A DNA stretch of 64,000 bases from an uncultured delta proteobacterium (lineage in GTDB: Bacteria > Myxococcota_A > Polyangia > Polyangiales > Polyangiaceae), in the NCBI GenBank assembly GCA_963696385.1, contig CAVOKF010000003.1, positions 160,001-224,000 of the forward strand, given 5' to 3'. Below are positions 12,051-18,874 of this stretch, piece after piece. Numbering within the stretch: position 1 is the first letter of the stretch; the number at the start of each line of letters is the position of its first letter. The notes beneath the pieces are model-generated. The model ran no database searches. It saw only the letters and a list, made by a program, of their open reading frames with translations, and was not told where the DNA came from. The translations under genes and the position numbers were made by a program.

Positions 12051-13760
12051 TCAATGTCCGTCGGGCGAGTCGATGCGTTCGCCAATGACGGAGTCCAGAT
12101 GTCCAGCCGACGCTCGCATTTCGAAGCGAATGATGCGTGAGGCGTCCTGCGGGGCGCAAGCGCGCACCGCGGCCGCGTGGGCCGCTTCAGCGCGGTCGAT
12201 CTCGACGTCACGCGGCTCGAAGGCGCGAATCTCGATCCCCAATCCATCGCCCTGGGCGCCCACGGTCACGCGTAGACATCGGCCCGCAGGAACGGTCTCG
12301 GTCCAGGTGACGAGTCGCGACTCGTCAAGAGCGAGCTCGCGAGCGGCGCCGTCTTTGCCTGGAAGAAGCATGGCTTCGCCGACGGCGGCACGAGCCAACA
12401 TGCGCGATGATGCGAGAGGATGCGAGGTAAACGAGGGGTCCTTCCATGGTTCGGGCCGCACGAACACAGCGTAGGGCCCGGGCCGTCCCCGCGCCTCGAG
12501 CTCAAGGCGTGCAGGTCCGCGGGTGCATGCGAAGAGCGCAAGAGACGAGGACGCCTCGCCGGACGCCAAAAGCGCATCACCCGCCCCCCAGACGCGGGCC
12601 TCCAGCAACGACAGAGGCGCCCCCGCGACCACGTCGATGCGTCCGCACGAGCTGCCAAGCCATCCGAGCTCGAGAGGCAAGCTCGCCCGTCGCCCGAGCG
12701 CGAGCACGCCGGATGCGGTCGACGCGGGAGGTGGGTAGCCGCTCTTGGCCAGCAACGCGTTGGTGGCCCGCTTCGCAACCTCGAGCGAGCGCGTGGGCGA
12801 CATCCATACAATGGCCGGCCGCTCGGTGAGGTCCCGTGCCACGTCGCCGCCGGCCCGCGCCAGGACGATGGCCACCAATCCACGACCGGCGTGCGGGCGA
12901 ACCGACAGCGTCCCGGCCATGGGCACCGGGGAGCACAGGGTCATGGACCGCGGCCCCATCTCTTCTCGGGCACGCGCCACAACCCGCCCCTGGTCGTCGG
13001 TCGCTTCTACATCCAGCAAGGCGACGTCGTCATCGGGGACGATGATCGCGTCGACGCACTGATCGGCGTCGACCGGCATCGAAGCGTACGTCGGGGCGCT
13101 GACGTCGACTGGGAGGGCAACGCGCTTGAACTCTTCCCATTTGCCGCCCAACTCCAATCGATGACGTCGCACCGCTTCATCCAGGCCCGGCCACGCATCG
13201 GCAGCCCGCGTCCCCTGCCCGAGCGCTCCACGGATCGCGAGCCCGTGAGCTACGGCGGCTGCTTGCTCCCTAGCCACGAGCTGGGCACCCACCGCAACGA
13301 GACCCTCGCCTTCGACCACGTGGGCAGCCACGTAGACGCGGATCGGGTGGGGGGGACACACGAGCACCGTTGGATGCACGTCACGCGCTTCGTCGACGGC
13401 CACCGAGGTCCCTTCATCGGAGTAGACCGCGACGTCCACGTCCTCCACAGAGGACGACGCTCTCGCATAAGCGAGCATGCAGAGCTCCGGCGGCACCTGG
13501 ACGAACGCCCCGAGCCAATCGTTGTCGAGTGCTTCCCCGGAAGCGACCAGCGACGGCGGCCCCGCGCCAAAGCGTGAGGCGCGAGCCGGTACATCCCCGA
13601 GGAGCGCCCGAGCTCCGAGCTGCCCCGCCGCCACCTCGGGGGCCCCCAGCGGCAAGCGCGTCGTCGCCTCGTGCAGAGAAGGTCGGAACGGGGCGCAGCC
13701 GGCCAGCACGATGACACCGCCGAGCCACGCGGTCGGCGCGTTGAGCGACAGGGCCCTCAC
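12051..13760 (-). CDS. Hypothetical lipoprotein with four Cys-paired beta-sandwich-like repeats
   Basis: Lipobox LAGC; four modules with two Cys each; GTGA overlap with the upstream gene. Confidence 0.75.
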   Translation of the reverse strand: MRALSLNAPTAWLGGVIVLAGCAPFRPSLHEATTRLPLGAPEVAAGQLGARALLGDVPARASRFGAGPPSLVASGEALDNDWLGAFVQVPPELCMLAYARASSSVEDVDVAVYSDEGTSVAVDEARDVHPTVLVCPPHPIRVYVAAHVVEGEGLVAVGAQLVAREQAAAVAHGLAIRGALGQGTRAADAWPGLDEAVRRHRLELGGKWEEFKRVALPVDVSAPTYASMPVDADQCVDAIIVPDDDVALLDVEATDDQGRVVARAREEMGPRSMTLCSPVPMAGTLSVRPHAGRGLVAIVLARAGGDVARDLTERPAIVWMSPTRSLEVAKRATNALLAKSGYPPPASTASGVLALGRRASLPLELGWLGSSCGRIDVVAGAPLSLLEARVWGAGDALLASGEASSSLALFACTRGPARLELEARGRPGPYAVFVRPEPWKDPSFTSHPLASSRMLARAAVGEAMLLPGKDGAARELALDESRLVTWTETVPAGRCLRVTVGAQGDGLGIEIRAFEPRDVEIDRAEAAHAAAVRACAPQDASRIIRFEMRASAGHLDSVIGERIDSPDGH

Positions 13761-15043
13761 GGCGGCGGGTCCCAGACGGTTACCGGCACGTGATAAACGG
13801 CGAGGCCCCAGCCGAGCAGGGCAGTGCCGTGCGCTTGCACTTGGGCCGAAGCTCGCGTGTGCTCGCCCGCGCAGAACGCGACCATGGCCACATTGTCGTC
13901 CGGCTCTCGATCATCGAAGACCTCCCTCGCAGCGACGCGAACATGAAGGCTGAGGGCACGCGCCATCCCCTGAATCAGCGAGACAAGCGCCAAGTAACAG
14001 CCTCCCGGCTCGATGGAGAGAGGAGCCACAGTGGTGCCCGATCCGCCTAGCGCGAGAACGACCGGCTCCGCCGGCAAGGAGACGACGTGTCGTGCGAGCA
14101 GAGCCTGAGCCATACGCCCACGAGCCTCGCTGCCCCAGATCGACGGTAGGTATTCAGGCAACGGCCACGCGACGTGCGAAATCAACACCGGAGCTTCCGG
14201 CGGGGAGCCGACGAACGCGATCCCCACGCGGGTGGGCTCGCCGACGCATACCGAGAGTCGGGCGTCCGGAGCGTCGGTTCGGTCGCGCGCGAGCAGGCGA
14301 TCGTCGAATCGGTCTCGCATTTCGGCATCCAAATCGAGCCTGGTGCGACGTGCAGGACGTACATTGTTAGGATCGAGTGCGAACAGCTGAAACCCGTGGC
14401 ATCCCGGCGAAAGGTCCACCTCGCCCAACCCTGCGCCGTCCACACCCGAGTGCCAGATGGCCCGCTTTGCCACCGAGGCTCCGTCTCGCTTGGCCCGCGC
14501 TTCGGCCAAGTCAGCGCGCTTTTCGGGCGCCGGAAGCGCCGGCAATGCTCCCGCCTCTGCAAACGGTCCAAGGCCGCCTGTGCGCTCGGGAAGAATGCTC
14601 TGCAATGCGGGCAACGGCTTCGCGGAACGGGCCACGACGGTTTCGAGAGCGCCTCGACCGGAGTCGCTCGTCACGAAAATTCGGCGCGCCTGGGCCTCGC
14701 CGCATCGCTCGATCGACAGGGCACCTGCCTCGCTCTGCGAGTGCTGGTTTGCGGCGGCTTCGCCGTCGCCGAGGAGCCGGACGTGAAATCCGAGAACGCG
14801 CGCCCCGATGAGGGCGATGGTCGTGCACTCGCCCTCGGGTAGATTGGGCAGTCTGACGACGGTGGTCTCATCGTCTCGGAGAAAGCGTGTCTTGTCGACC
14901 TCGACCCACCCGCCGGCGCTGCGCCACGCGTTCGCGATGCGATCCACCGCATCCTGCAACTGCGCGTGTGCATCGGGTGCGCCGACGAGGATGGCGGTGG
15001 TGCAACCAGCCAGGACCGTGCGGCACGCCCGCGTGAGCACCAT
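13757..15043 (-). CDS. Hypothetical secreted protein with three Cys-paired repeats
   Basis: Signal peptide ending AHA-Q; modules similar to the neighbouring lipoprotein. Confidence 0.72.
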   Translation of the reverse strand: MVLTRACRTVLAGCTTAILVGAPDAHAQLQDAVDRIANAWRSAGGWVEVDKTRFLRDDETTVVRLPNLPEGECTTIALIGARVLGFHVRLLGDGEAAANQHSQSEAGALSIERCGEAQARRIFVTSDSGRGALETVVARSAKPLPALQSILPERTGGLGPFAEAGALPALPAPEKRADLAEARAKRDGASVAKRAIWHSGVDGAGLGEVDLSPGCHGFQLFALDPNNVRPARRTRLDLDAEMRDRFDDRLLARDRTDAPDARLSVCVGEPTRVGIAFVGSPPEAPVLISHVAWPLPEYLPSIWGSEARGRMAQALLARHVVSLPAEPVVLALGGSGTTVAPLSIEPGGCYLALVSLIQGMARALSLHVRVAAREVFDDREPDDNVAMVAFCAGEHTRASAQVQAHGTALLGWGLAVYHVPVTVWDPPP

Positions 15044-15044
15044 G

Positions 15045-15566
15045 TCAGCGACCTTCATCCACCTCGAGCCGACTCGGAACGAACTCGCTCGACCGCGCGT
15101 CCCACACGAAGAGCCTGCGATCGTCGACGTTGCCGTCGCGCACGCTGGTAACCAGGTAGGCGAGATCCCACGGCGGCTCGCCCTGTCCCATCTTCGCAAC
15201 CTCCGCGTCGGTGGCAGAGAAGTACGCCCCGACGTCCAGATGAGAATGATACAGCACCTTCACGGGGCGTCCGTCGGATTCACCGCGACCGATGGCCTCC
15301 TCAAACTTCCTCGAGTCGATGTCGAAGTAGGTCCGCCCCGTACGGGGGTATTGCTCCGGATCGAATCGATGCAGGCGGTTGGCGCGGTTAACCATCGGGA
15401 CCAAGCCGTCGATCCGCAGACCGTCCTGGGCGGGACCGACGAGAAAACCGCAGCTCTCCTCGTCCGCAGCGTACGATCGCCGGGCTTCCTCGTCGACCCG
15501 ATCGAGCACGGAGCGGGGTATGACGAGATCACCATCGATCCAAGGATGTTTTTTGGGGTCGCGCAT
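15045..15566 (-). CDS. JAB/MPN+ (M67) metalloprotease, Mec-like
   Basis: EESCGFL ... YHSHLDVGAYFSATD JAMM motif. Confidence 0.92.
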   Translation of the reverse strand: MRDPKKHPWIDGDLVIPRSVLDRVDEEARRSYAADEESCGFLVGPAQDGLRIDGLVPMVNRANRLHRFDPEQYPRTGRTYFDIDSRKFEEAIGRGESDGRPVKVLYHSHLDVGAYFSATDAEVAKMGQGEPPWDLAYLVTSVRDGNVDDRRLFVWDARSSEFVPSRLEVDEGR

Positions 15567-15594: not shown

Positions 15595-16539
15595 TTACCA
15601 AACGTATCTGCGCTCCCACCGGATGGGAGCGAAGTAGCGATCGCCACGATCGCAGACGATCGCTACGACGCACCCGGAGCGACCCGATTGCACGAGCTCT
15701 CGCGCGACCTGGAGGGCGGCGAATACGTTCGCCCCCGACGAATGCCCGACATGAAGGCCCTCCTCTCGCGCAAGTCGATCGGCGGTGTCCCACCCATCCT
15801 CGGTCGATACGTGGAAGGTCCGGTCCGGTACGCGAGCGTCGTAAATGGGCGGAACGAGGCTCGTCGCCAAGTGCTTCAAGCCCTCAAGACCGTGCAACGC
15901 CTCGGCGGGCTCGACGGCGATGCATTCGATCCGGCGGGGCCATTCTTTGAGGCGCCGCGCGCAACCCATCATCGTGCCCGTCGTGCCGAGACCCGCGACG
16001 AAGTGGGTCACTCGGTCACCCAACGCCTCCAGGATCTCGCGCCCGGTTCCGTCGTAGTGGGCGAGCCAATTCGACGGATTGGAATACTGATCGGGGTAAA
16101 AATAGGCGTTCGAATCTTTGGCGACGATCTCGCGCACGACGCGGATGGCTCCGTCCGATCCCTCCATCGGGTCGGTGTAGACGATATCGGTCCCGAAACT
16201 CCGCACGATGTCTTTGCGTGCTTTGGTTACATTCGCAGGCATAACCAGGCGAACTCGAATGCCAAAAATCGCCCCAAATATCGAGTAAGCGACACCCGTG
16301 TTGCCACTCGTCGAGTCGATCAAGATCTTGTCGCGCGTGAGCCTTCCATCCGCCAACGCGTCCTGCATCATCCGAAGAGCGGGCCGGTCCTTCACACTCC
16401 CGCCCGGATTTGCAAACTCCAACTTCGCCCAAATCTGCACCCCTGCGAGCTCGCGGGCGATGCCCCTCAGCCGGACCAGCGGAGTGTTGCCGACGGCGTC
16501 GACAATCGATTCGATACGTCGGCTTCTGCCGGCTCTCAC
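15595..16539 (-). CDS. cysM: PLP-dependent cysteine synthase, CysM-like
   Basis: VGNTPLV, KLEFANPGGSVKDR, STSGNTG, GLGTTGT, SSGAN, DRGDRY. Confidence 0.88.
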   Translation of the reverse strand: MRAGRSRRIESIVDAVGNTPLVRLRGIARELAGVQIWAKLEFANPGGSVKDRPALRMMQDALADGRLTRDKILIDSTSGNTGVAYSIFGAIFGIRVRLVMPANVTKARKDIVRSFGTDIVYTDPMEGSDGAIRVVREIVAKDSNAYFYPDQYSNPSNWLAHYDGTGREILEALGDRVTHFVAGLGTTGTMMGCARRLKEWPRRIECIAVEPAEALHGLEGLKHLATSLVPPIYDARVPDRTFHVSTEDGWDTADRLAREEGLHVGHSSGANVFAALQVARELVQSGRSGCVVAIVCDRGDRYFAPIRWERRYVW

Positions 16540-16892
16540 GGTACACCCTCCAGCACGGCGCGCACCGTACGCAGAGCAAAGTGAGCCCCATCGGCCAGAG
16601 CCTGTGCGGCCGGGTCGCGAAATCCGAACGGACCCGGAGCACGTTCGACGGCAATGGCCGGGGCGAATTCGACGCGCACCGACGGATCCATCGCGCGCAG
16701 CGTCGCCGCGAGCGCGGGGTCGCGCACACGCACCCTTCGTGCACCGGCGCCCACTAGGTAGCCACCCGCGACCTCAGCGGCGAACCCGTCGAGCGGTACG
16801 TCGACGCTTGCGCGCGCGATCTTGGTCTGACCCATAGACCCAACCTCGGCGAGCCGGGACTGGCGCCCGTGCCGGTCCATCGTTGCGCTCAT
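16536..16892 (-). CDS. Short degenerate ThiF/MoeB-like protein (putative inactive E1 subunit)
   Basis: RHGRQSRLAEVGSMGQTKIARASV matches the E1 N-terminal arm; no GxGxxG; LRAMDPSVRV matches L..LNP.V.V; 4-nt overlaps on both sides. Confidence 0.75.
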   Translation of the reverse strand: MSATMDRHGRQSRLAEVGSMGQTKIARASVDVPLDGFAAEVAGGYLVGAGARRVRVRDPALAATLRAMDPSVRVEFAPAIAVERAPGPFGFRDPAAQALADGAHFALRTVRAVLEGVP

Positions 16893-17161
16893 CCGCCTGC
16901 AATCGCGGGCACGATACTGATCTGATCGCCCGTATTGAGCTTCGTTTTCAGTCCGTCGAGAAACCGAACGTCCTCTTCGCCCACGTAAATGTTGATGAAG
17001 CGTCGAACTCCACGTTCGTCGAGCAACCGTTCACGTATCCCGGGATGCCGACGCTCCAGATCGTCGATCAGTTCGCCGACGGTACCGCCCGAAGCCGTTA
17101 CCTCGTCGGCTCCGCCGGTCAGCGTTCGCAGCGGCGTTGGAATGCGTACGATGGTCTCCAT
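16889..17161 (-). CDS. MoaD/ThiS/CysO-family ubiquitin-like sulfur carrier
   Basis: VRIPTPLR, RRFINIYV, C-terminal PAIAGG; GAGGAGAG RBS. Confidence 0.94.
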   Translation of the reverse strand: METIVRIPTPLRTLTGGADEVTASGGTVGELIDDLERRHPGIRERLLDERGVRRFINIYVGEEDVRFLDGLKTKLNTGDQISIVPAIAGG

Positions 17162-17180
17162 TGGCAATCTCTCCTCTCGG

Positions 17181-17903
17181 TCAGCCTGCACACGGGCGCG
17201 GATCATAAGCGGCCGGCTCGATCCGTCGAATGCGCGGAGCCGCGCCGCAGAGGGCGCAGTCGATGCGGGGCTCGATCGTGCGACGCCGCAACATGTCGGT
17301 ACGCCCGTCGAAGGTCACCAACTGCCCGGAGATCGCATCGCCGTCGAGCCATGAAAGAGTCCAGTCGACCTGCGCAGCGGCAACGACGCCCAGCACGGGC
17401 CCCATGACGCCCGCCTCGGCGCAGTTGGGCGCATCGTCGGTGGGCAGGTCCTCGAAAAGGCACCGATAGCAGGGTCTGCCGCGCGATCCGACGCCAAGAA
17501 CCGTGCCGATCCATCGGACCGCCGAAGCATGCACGATGCCCACGCCAGCGAACATGCACGCGTCCGCCGCAAGAAATTTCGTCGCGAAGTTGTCGCTGCC
17601 CTCGACGACCACGTCGTACTGTCGCACGATCTCCATGGCGTTGGCGGGCAGCATGCGGGTCGAGTGCGCCCGGATCTTCATGTCTGGAGCCCGCCGACGG
17701 AGCTCCCGAACGGCCGCGTCCACCTTGGGCGCGCCGACGTCACCGTCTCGGAAGAGGATTTGGCGGTGCAGATTGGTCGCCTCGACGACATCGTCGTCGC
17801 AGATGCCCAAAACTTCGATGCCAGTCTGCGCCAGCGCAAGGGCGGCCGGACAACCGAGGCCCCCGACTCCGAGGATGAGAACGCGCGCGCGCGCGCGACT
17901 CAC
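17181..17903 (-). CDS. MoeB/ThiF-family E1-like adenylyltransferase lacking the N-terminal arm and a rhodanese domain
   Basis: GVGGLG, DDDVVEATNLHRQ, GSDNF, CYRC, NCAEAGV, CALC; GGAGG 7 nt before GTG. Confidence 0.93.
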   Translation of the reverse strand: MSRARARVLILGVGGLGCPAALALAQTGIEVLGICDDDVVEATNLHRQILFRDGDVGAPKVDAAVRELRRRAPDMKIRAHSTRMLPANAMEIVRQYDVVVEGSDNFATKFLAADACMFAGVGIVHASAVRWIGTVLGVGSRGRPCYRCLFEDLPTDDAPNCAEAGVMGPVLGVVAAAQVDWTLSWLDGDAISGQLVTFDGRTDMLRRRTIEPRIDCALCGAAPRIRRIEPAAYDPRPCAG

Positions 17904-18874
17904 CGACCGGCCTCCGGAAAGTACTCCTCCAGGCTAAAGTATCGCTCGCCCGTGTCAGGCAGGACGGTCACGACGTTCTTGCCCATTCCGAGCTCTCGCG
18001 CGACGTCGAGTGCAGCGTGAACCGCCGCGCCGGCGCTGATGCCCACGAGCAGCCCTTCACGGCGTGCGAGTTCGACCTTCATACGCCACGCGTCCGAGTC
18101 GCTGACCGTGCGCACCTCATCGACGACTTCGGGGTGATAATTTTTCGGAACGAAGCCTGCGCCGAGTCCCTGAATCTTGGTCGGGCCGCGCTCGTCGCGC
18201 GAAATGGTTGCGCAGGACTCAGGCTCGACGGCGACGATCCGGGGTCGGGGCGAAAGCTGGTGACGCAACGCTTTGCCCACACCGCTGATCGTTCCGCCCG
18301 TGCCCACCCCCGCCACGAACGCGTCGATATGCAAGCCGTCCATCGCTCGGATGATCTCCTGCGCCGTGGCGTGCTCATGAATGTTCGGGTTGGCCGCGTT
18401 CCCGAACTGATCCGGCAGGAACGCCCCAGGGGTCGTGTCTGCGAGGGCTCGCGCCGCAGAGACTGCCCCGGCCAGCTGTTCGGTCTCCGGCGTGAGCACG
18501 ACCTCGGCTCCGAACGCCTCGAGCAATTGGCGGCGCTCGAGGCTCATGCTCTCGGGCATCGCCAGAATGCACCGGTACCCACGAACCGCGCAGACCAAAG
18601 CAAGGCCGACTCCGGTGTTTCCGCTCGTGGGCTCCACCACGACACCGCCCGGCTTCAGACGTCCCGTGCGTTCCGCGTCGTCGATCATGGAAAGAGCAAT
18701 GCGGTCCTTGACCGACCCGGCCGGATTGGCCTGCTCCATCTTGGCCCAGACGGCCGCCCTGCGACCCGGGCGCCCGGGCGTGCGGATGGCGATGAGCGGC
18801 GTCTCGCCGACCAGATCGAGCACGCTTTCGGCCAGTAGGAGCGGAGGCGCCGAGGAGCGCTCAGGCATCGTCAT
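17900..18874 (-). CDS. cysK: Cysteine synthase A
   Basis: NPAGSVKDR, EPTSGNTG, MPESMSLERR, GVGTGGT, KIQGLG, PDTGERY. Confidence 0.93.
   Translation of the reverse strand: MTMPERSSAPPLLLAESVLDLVGETPLIAIRTPGRPGRRAAVWAKMEQANPAGSVKDRIALSMIDDAERTGRLKPGGVVVEPTSGNTGVGLALVCAVRGYRCILAMPESMSLERRQLLEAFGAEVVLTPETEQLAGAVSAARALADTTPGAFLPDQFGNAANPNIHEHATAQEIIRAMDGLHIDAFVAGVGTGGTISGVGKALRHQLSPRPRIVAVEPESCATISRDERGPTKIQGLGAGFVPKNYHPEVVDEVRTVSDSDAWRMKVELARREGLLVGISAGAAVHAALDVARELGMGKNVVTVLPDTGERYFSLEEYFPEAGR

Follow-up and report, generated by a model that had tools for sequence, protein, structure and literature searches.

The window, a stretch of 64,000 nucleotides (nt) from an uncultured member of the Polyangiaceae (order Polyangiales, Myxococcota; GenBank assembly GCA_963696385.1, contig CAVOKF010000003.1, positions 160,001 to 224,000), carries a cysteine operon in which the activating enzyme (E1) of a ubiquitin-like (Ubl) sulfur carrier is probably encoded by two genes of unequal size. 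The genes are tightly coupled on the minus strand in the order cysK, MoeB-like, Ubl, a short open reading frame, CysM-like and JAB. The features are listed below with their basis; lengths are in amino acids (aa).

17900..18874, minus strand: cysK, O-acetylserine-type cysteine synthase A; TIGR01139, 374.5 bits against a cut-off of 350.95; its stop overlaps the MoeB start
17911..17915, minus strand: GGAGG ribosome-binding site, 7 nt ahead of the GTG of the arm-less MoeB; read from the sequence
17181..17903, minus strand: arm-less active adenylation subunit (AAD), 240 aa; Pfam ThiF 20-233/238 and alignment-invariant columns
16889..17161, minus strand: CysO-like ubiquitin-fold sulfur carrier (Ubl), 90 aa, with a Gly-Gly end; PDB 4n6e_B and 3dwg_C, Pfam ThiS
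16536..16892, minus strand: miniature inactive adenylation subunit (IAD), 114-118 aa; AlphaFold2 fold, VIA-align and conservation
15595..16539, minus strand: CysM-like second cysteine synthase, whose conserved C-terminal extension ends in W; TIGR01138, 329 bits against a cut-off of 394.2, which is not reached
15045..15566, minus strand: JAB/Mec-type zinc peptidase; Pfam Prok-JAB, E 7e-11

The GTG of the MoeB-like gene overlaps the cysK stop as GTGA. An ATGA overlap joins the Ubl stop to the short reading frame, and a further GTGA joins the short frame to the cysM start. The most likely start of the Ubl was 17161. The carrier ends in AIAGG, and its best PDB matches were 4n6e_B (E 2e-26) and 3dwg_C (E 2e-23). 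The CysM-like enzyme remained below the TIGR01138 cut-off and matched PDB entries of both the CysM and the CysK kinds, which did not separate the two types. It is the probable user of the thiocarboxylate, which CysM of the CysO pathway takes together with O-phosphoserine. Based on library and PDB searches, a CysO-like carrier, a second cysteine synthase and a JAB peptidase lie together in this operon. The operon E1 comprised a ThiF domain only, without rhodanese in the Pfam scan, and no gene for a conjugating enzyme (E2) was found with Pfam and NCBIfam among the operon genes scanned.

The 240-aa MoeB-like protein retains GxGGxG, DxD, NLHRQ, K60, D104, both CxxC pairs and C161 of the crossover loop. 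Pattern searches in 120 relatives recovered the motifs of the ThiF/MoeB superfamily at high frequency (GxGGxG in 104, NLxRQ in 113 and two CxxC in 112). Canonical homodimeric MoeB and ThiF carry the RYxRQ arm on the active-site chain, and this arm was missing here. The Pfam ThiF match began at position 20 of 238, compared with position 1 in the other ThiF gene of the genome (contig C5), and PDB matches of the ThiF/MoeB kind began at their own residues 29-32. The initial annotation had taken the start to be set by the GGAGG and the GTGA overlap. This was confirmed, with the GTG 7 nt after GGAGG and the frame open for just 10 codons upstream, so that no in-frame arm is possible. An in-frame arm was absent from all 117 rows viewed out of the 120 relatives, and canonical controls displayed it. 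Arm flags raised at arm-less loci lay upstream of the start, were mostly off-frame translations of the overlapping cysK end and were rejected. The protein had neither a CYS insertion nor a ubiquitin-fold domain. A signature of E101, K109 and F110, replacing D, R and Y, marked the arm-less clade. The genome also holds a canonical MoeB on contig C5 with a long N-terminal extension, which we take to be a rhodanese of the PRK08762 type.

The arm was present in the product of the short frame as RHGRQ..EVG..GQ, with R7 and R10. This product had been described as a 118-aa protein with the arm and without GxGxxG, NLxRQ and zinc-binding cysteines, and the description extended to the family, since GxGGxG, NLxRQ and CxxC occurred in 0 of 251 short-protein rows from two slightly overlapping sets. 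The anatomy required revision in three respects. The length of 118 aa is uncertain, as the start is perhaps Met5 (16880) and the homologue P0002 has the 114-aa form. The DPxV motif was present in longer members of the family and missing from forms of 86-100 aa. A dimer helix at the C-terminal end had been overlooked: the arm is followed by a degenerate beta1-alphaA-beta2-alphaB-beta3 unit and then by the E1 dimer helix (94-115). Deletion appears to have removed the central part of the sheet together with the crossover loop and the zinc site.

No Pfam family matched the short protein, and NCBIfam gave only weak N-terminal matches to ThiF/MoeB. A 30-row profile matched the N-termini of Uba4, ThiF and MoeB with E values of 5e-10 to 7e-5, so this resemblance is not due to chance; SAE1 was matched weakly. 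The HH probability to the E1 fold was 98%. The family profile recovered 515 representatives at E<=1e-10, and the best 150 of the 515 were mostly 80-145 aa long. A scan of the contigs of its own genome with the single sequence gave one weak, unrelated match. AlphaFold2 modelled the short protein with a mean predicted local distance difference test (pLDDT) of 91.9, and the top 21 VIA-align rows for this model were all E1-superfamily chains. It aligned with Uba4 at Z 13.0 (root-mean-square deviation, rmsd, 2.8; 116 aligned), with MoeB at Z 10.3 (rmsd 3.2; 116 aligned, chain 5-217), with NAE1 at Z 9.7 and with residues 5-167 of BilD at Z 8.1. Foldseek returned no row at E<=0.001, with ThiF, Uba4 and MoeB as its top rows. 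The 118-aa protein is a conserved, minimised E1 domain that lost the ATP-binding motifs and kept the arm arginine.

R10 and Y45 were the sole invariant residues in a 138-row alignment of sequences mostly 30-55% identical. In a set of 120 rows, the R10 position held R in 95% and K in 4%, and Y45 was found in 80%. The helix residues G102, A103 and A106 were about as conserved as the arm. Throughout the lineage of loci L138, L151, L167 and L181 (G053, G099, G109, G081), Lys replaced the finger Arg (RFAKH or RYAKH). At L008:223-1812, minus strand (G034), the short E1 domain runs in frame into a homologue of the gene of unnamed function found downstream of the operon, giving, by fusion or by a lost stop, a protein of 539 aa (P0043).

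The short family diverges fast and varies in length from 86 to 150 aa, and the short gene was lost in two lineages, described below. These observations would fit a decaying duplicate beside an arm-less MoeB that is self-sufficient as a homodimer or monomer. The ratio of nonsynonymous to synonymous substitution rates (dN/dS) was calculated with our own Nei-Gojobori script for 23 genomes of genus g35, which belongs to another family of the order. The median for the short gene was 0.27 and the maximum 0.56 (230 of 253 pairs); the active subunit showed 0.15 (251 of 253 pairs). The short frame is therefore not near the value of 1 that the initial annotation had named as the sign of an unconserved gene. 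Purifying selection largely refutes decay. Intact frames with an invariant motif across many families, and the lack of the canonical dimer-helix Glu and Lys in the arm-less domain, also argue against it, leaving this explanation very improbable.

Linkage of the two genes was followed across 201 genomes of the order. This denominator includes the unpublished G123, on which no claim is based. A search with PF00899 yielded canonical genes only among the best 150 matches listed, and a clade profile of arm-less MoeBs (27 rows) was therefore used. Its best 150 matches all had E<=6e-75, and six canonical genes from the 201 genomes scored 1e-62 to 1e-68. Twenty-eight of these 150 were already known beside a short gene; 120 of the remaining 122 formed a test set picked by the active subunit alone. 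A short gene was located downstream in 113 of the 120 loci by hidden Markov model and in two more by eye, giving 115 of 120. The finger position of the 113 was Arg in 108 and Lys in five. Two loci stopped at a contig edge, one of them in a genome with the short gene on another contig, and three lacked the gene. The proposal that an arm-less MoeB is always accompanied by the short gene consequently held at 115 loci and failed at three. The last two of the 122 genomes also had the short gene. Loci picked by the short gene gave the same picture, with an arm-less MoeB adjoining 41 of 43 and the other two cut by contig ends. Altogether, the two-gene form was present in at least 150 of the 201 genomes. 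In eight genomes the two genes were immediate neighbours with neither Ubl nor cys genes in between, which indicates that the short gene is tied to the E1 rather than to the carrier.

This linkage also bears on a different partnership, in which the arm-less subunit pairs with a canonical rhodanese-MoeB, leaving the small protein as an alternative partner or as a regulator, for instance a dead subunit tempering the canonical enzyme. A canonical rhodanese-MoeB was present in the genome of the window and in G045, G114 and G130, and such pairing would account both for lineages without the small gene and for the sulfur source. However, the small gene accompanies the arm-less one, in the eight genomes even without Ubl and cys genes, and no small gene without an arm-less neighbour was seen wherever the contig permitted a look. 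The small domain is moreover fused to the arm-less domain in seven genomes. The partnership with the canonical enzyme was accordingly judged improbable.

To see how residues are divided between the two proteins, 24 canonical domains were compared with 126 arm-less ones. All canonical domains (100%) had the YLAAAG Tyr, the LNP-motif Asn and, in the dimer helix, a Glu and a Lys, and none of these was the consensus in the arm-less domains. The short family retains the arm, the Tyr (Y45) and the dimer helix, for which the wider set gave the consensus GAxAAxEA. Judged from these alignments, the residues missing from the active subunit (arm, Tyr and dimer-helix Glu) apparently survive in the short one. 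The two proteins overlap in homology, both containing beta1-alphaA-beta2 as well as the dimer helix. A simple split of a single gene was ruled out by this overlap and by the gene order (active, Ubl, inactive), which is the reverse of the order in fused relatives. The term 'split' E1, in the sense of a gene cut in two, was therefore abandoned in favour of a duplicate with reciprocal loss.

Fused relatives were found outside the order. Twenty loci were inspected in a phylum sample of 221 genomes, 19 from 36 out-of-order rows plus G005; 18 were canonical and two encoded a mini-IAD and an arm-less domain as one in-frame fusion. The split form did not occur outside the order in these 20 loci. In another myxococcotal order, the fusion of mini-IAD and arm-less AAD was present in 7 of 25 genomes. 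The fused proteins comprised 320-390 aa and were encoded at L241:1501-2658, minus strand (G272), and in G222, G227, G364, G391, G392 and G268; neither Ubl nor cys genes lay within 1.5 kb of them. At L261:1495 (G227), no ATG, GTG or TTG stood just before the arm motif of the fused gene, unlike in its relatives. Searching proteins with the N-terminal region of the fusion gave no further fused homologue.

The 386-aa G272 protein was modelled with pLDDT 85.6 and a predicted template modelling score (pTM) of 0.90 from 60 rows, seven of them covering the N-terminal domain. Over both domains, the model aligned with BilD at Z 32.0 (rmsd 3.6, 348 residues) and with UBA1 at Z 27.6 (rmsd 3.8, 362 residues). 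In the predicted model, IAD and AAD are arranged as in BilD and UBA1. The UBA1 alignment begins at model residue 10 and chain residue 52; if it is ungapped there, the arm arginine R15 would coincide with UBA1 R57, a residue that stabilises pyrophosphate in its position (PMC12355090). A tree of 152 active domains was built with FastTree, with 21 of the 120 loci thinned out and two of the seven fused proteins included; in it, the G227 fusion joined the arm-less clade with a support of 0.98 and G272 with 0.63, both on long branches. A shared origin of the fused and split forms is plausible. Complementary residue loss, co-occurrence at 115 of 120 loci, purifying selection and natural fusions with a BilD/UBA1-like model give good support to the asymmetric active/inactive pair proposed in the initial annotation.

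With a probability of roughly 0.7, the products of the two genes form a heterodimeric E1 with a single active site that serves a cysteine pathway of the CysO/CysM/Mec type, with the arginine supplied in trans. The arm-less enzyme and its tiny dead copy would probably act as unequal partners, in the manner of the eukaryotic two-subunit E1s. From the observed anatomy, homology, conservation, linkage and fused relatives, the following course is predicted for binding, the reach of the arginine, chemistry and the sulfur donor. The 240-aa subunit would bind ATP-Mg, Zn and the Ubl, and the 114-118-aa subunit would pack on it via the conserved dimer helix like a second MoeB protomer. In homodimeric MoeB, R14 completes the ATP site of the partner chain in trans. 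R10, the equivalent of MoeB R14, APPBP1 R15 and BilD R9, would enter the ATP site of the partner and stabilise the phosphates and the leaving pyrophosphate. The resulting Ubl-AMP would be converted to Ubl-thiocarboxylate; since the operon has no rhodanese, the donor would be sulfide or the separate rhodanese-MoeB. The CysM-like enzyme would then make Ubl-cysteine and the JAB peptidase would free cysteine, steps modelled on the CysO-CysM-Mec pathway (PMC3227635). The pair itself would have arisen when a homodimeric MoeB was duplicated and the two copies underwent reciprocal loss. Supply of an arginine by an inactive partner has precedents, as APPBP1 supplies R15 (PMC6031683) and the inactive domain of BilD completes the site with R9 (PMC10557695).

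The small protein could instead bind as a structural cap or chaperone over the dimer face of the active subunit, with its arginine contributing little to catalysis. The APPBP1 mutation R15A merely slows NEDD8 activation and UBA3 is active without APPBP1 (PMC6031683); the loss of the small gene in at least two lineages and the conservation of the small-residue helix G102/A103/A106 at about the level of the arm also fit a cap. A pure cap would not need R10 to be one of just two invariant residues in 138 sequences mostly 30-55% identical, or Lys to be its only substitute in 113 loci (five cases), and this explanation was considered unlikely.

Several observations weigh against a heterodimer with an arginine in trans. 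By sequence alone, the last helix of the short protein was only weakly related to the canonical QAxEAxK (HH probability 3.9%, E 0.011). The fused relative was about 38-47% identical to the split active subunits, with just seven rows over its N-terminal domain, and its AlphaFold model may lean on solved E1 dimers. The sampled genomes are kin, so that the co-occurrence counts are not independent trials. The canonical rhodanese-MoeB of the genome could activate the Ubl. G130, G045 and G114, which are 98-100% complete, and G147 have cysK-moeB-Ubl-cysM with the Ubl running straight into cysM, and neither profile found a short gene genome-wide in the first three. G104 had a lone arm-less gene, and in G042 the 1.4 kb remaining up to the contig end contained no short gene. 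The active-site motifs were intact in the arm-less enzymes of G130, G045 and G114, and the arm-less enzyme can therefore persist alone.

G045, G114, G147 and G104 belong to genus g62. In the FastTree tree G130, G045 and G114 were nested among lineages bearing the short gene, a pattern indicative of two or more secondary losses. 'Obligate', the term used in the initial annotation, is thus too strong, as G130 and genus g62 have retained intact arm-less enzymes and no short gene was found in them. A possible compensating arginine (DRHESKF in G045 and G114) was not supported, because G041, a genome with the short gene, likewise shows DRYAVKF. For the preferred heterodimer, the small subunit would be rate-enhancing and stabilising and not universally obligate. 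By analogy, the losses fit the NEDD8 pattern, in which UBA3 works more slowly without APPBP1, an accelerator that is not required; the SUMO E1 requires both subunits (PMC6031683).

MoeB, ThiF and Uba4 were the best sequence and structure matches for both proteins. E. coli MoeB-MoaD and ThiF-ThiS and fungal Uba4-Urm1 (PDB 1jw9, 1zud, 6yub) have the fold, catalytic motifs, zinc site, crossover Cys and Gly-Gly carrier in common with the present system. They are symmetric homodimers with arm and active site on each chain (PMC12355090, PMC12687455), whereas here these lie on separate genes and the arm-bearing protein is about half the size. SAE1-SAE2 and NAE1(APPBP1)-UBA3 resemble the pair in having two genes, an inactive subunit that keeps the arginine arm and an active one without it (PMC6031683). 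In contrast to them, the operon pair has no cysteine domain, ubiquitin-fold domain or E2 gene, its inactive subunit comprises 118 aa compared with 346-529 aa, and its neighbours suggest sulfur transfer rather than conjugation. As the present active subunit is closest to canonical MoeB, the parallel to SAE and NAE would be convergent. BilD of the Bil antiviral system and UBA1 (PDB 8tyz, 9mc4) likewise have one active site and an arginine from an inactive domain (BilD R9, PMC10557695). Both are single polypeptides with a CYS domain and E2-dependent conjugation, whereas the present genes are two and sit in a housekeeping operon for cysteine. The separation of the genes, the lack of a CYS insertion and the absence of an E2 from the scanned operon genes also set the locus apart from the Bil system (BilABCD).

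Carrier, synthase and JAB peptidase are known as a set from mycobacterial CysO-CysM-Mec-MoeZR (PMC3227635), and operon type 4c of Iyer et al. 2006 combines ThiS/MoaD, an E1-like protein, JAB and cysteine synthase (PMC1779556). The E1 of the CysO pathway and of type 4c is one chain fused to rhodanese, and that of the present operon is two unequal genes without rhodanese. Reviews describe bacterial sulfur-carrier E1s as homodimeric and the active/inactive pair as eukaryotic (PMC12687455, PMC12355090), and BubCD is a homodimer (10.1101/2024.11.21.623953). The fused BilD is a bacterial precedent and an exception to a eukaryote-only asymmetry. The claim of novelty in the initial annotation was thereby narrowed, as an arginine from a bacterial inactive domain was already known in fused form (BilD Arg9, PMC10557695). 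A two-gene sulfur-carrier E1 was not found in the literature searched, which left most subscription papers outside. A 2009 survey of the E1 superfamily, reportedly by Burroughs, Iyer and Aravind, could bear on this.

Tentatively, Myxococcota may hold a full series: the canonical homodimer, a single-chain mini-IAD-AAD (seven genomes, UBA1-like), a two-gene heterodimer (most Polyangiales, SAE/NAE-like) and secondary loss. The fused and split forms would share one origin, and the subunit of about 115 aa might be a minimal arginine-finger donor that gates cysteine-carrier activation and insulates it from the housekeeping MoeB. A two-gene form in ordinary cysteine metabolism, with fused and loss forms in relatives, would show that the asymmetry arises without protein conjugation. 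The step from homodimer to heterodimer becomes testable with two small proteins, the minimal needs of an inactive E1 domain would be displayed, and more than 100 unnamed proteins without a Pfam match would be given a function.

Just downstream of the JAB gene, a coupled gene pair (12051-13760 and 13757-15058, minus strand) had no Pfam and no significant NCBIfam match. By eye, a gene like those downstream of JAB also trails the operon in G130, where an adenylyl-sulfate-kinase-like gene follows the operon as well. A Rrf2/CymR-like regulator gene, identified by eye, lies ahead of the operon at L075, L155, L171 and L176 (G130, G045, G114, G050). The regulator-like and kinase-like neighbours fit a sulfur regulon. 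RNA-library contigs of relatives about 94% identical span the operon, and one from run X1 (16683-17562) bridges moeB, Ubl and the short gene, which is not evidence of transcription. The genome of the window (G000; contigs C5 and C3; L239, L240, L238) has one cysE above the cut-off and three more strong cysE-like matches. Two ThiS-family carriers only were reported for it, the operon Ubl and one at C3:587741.

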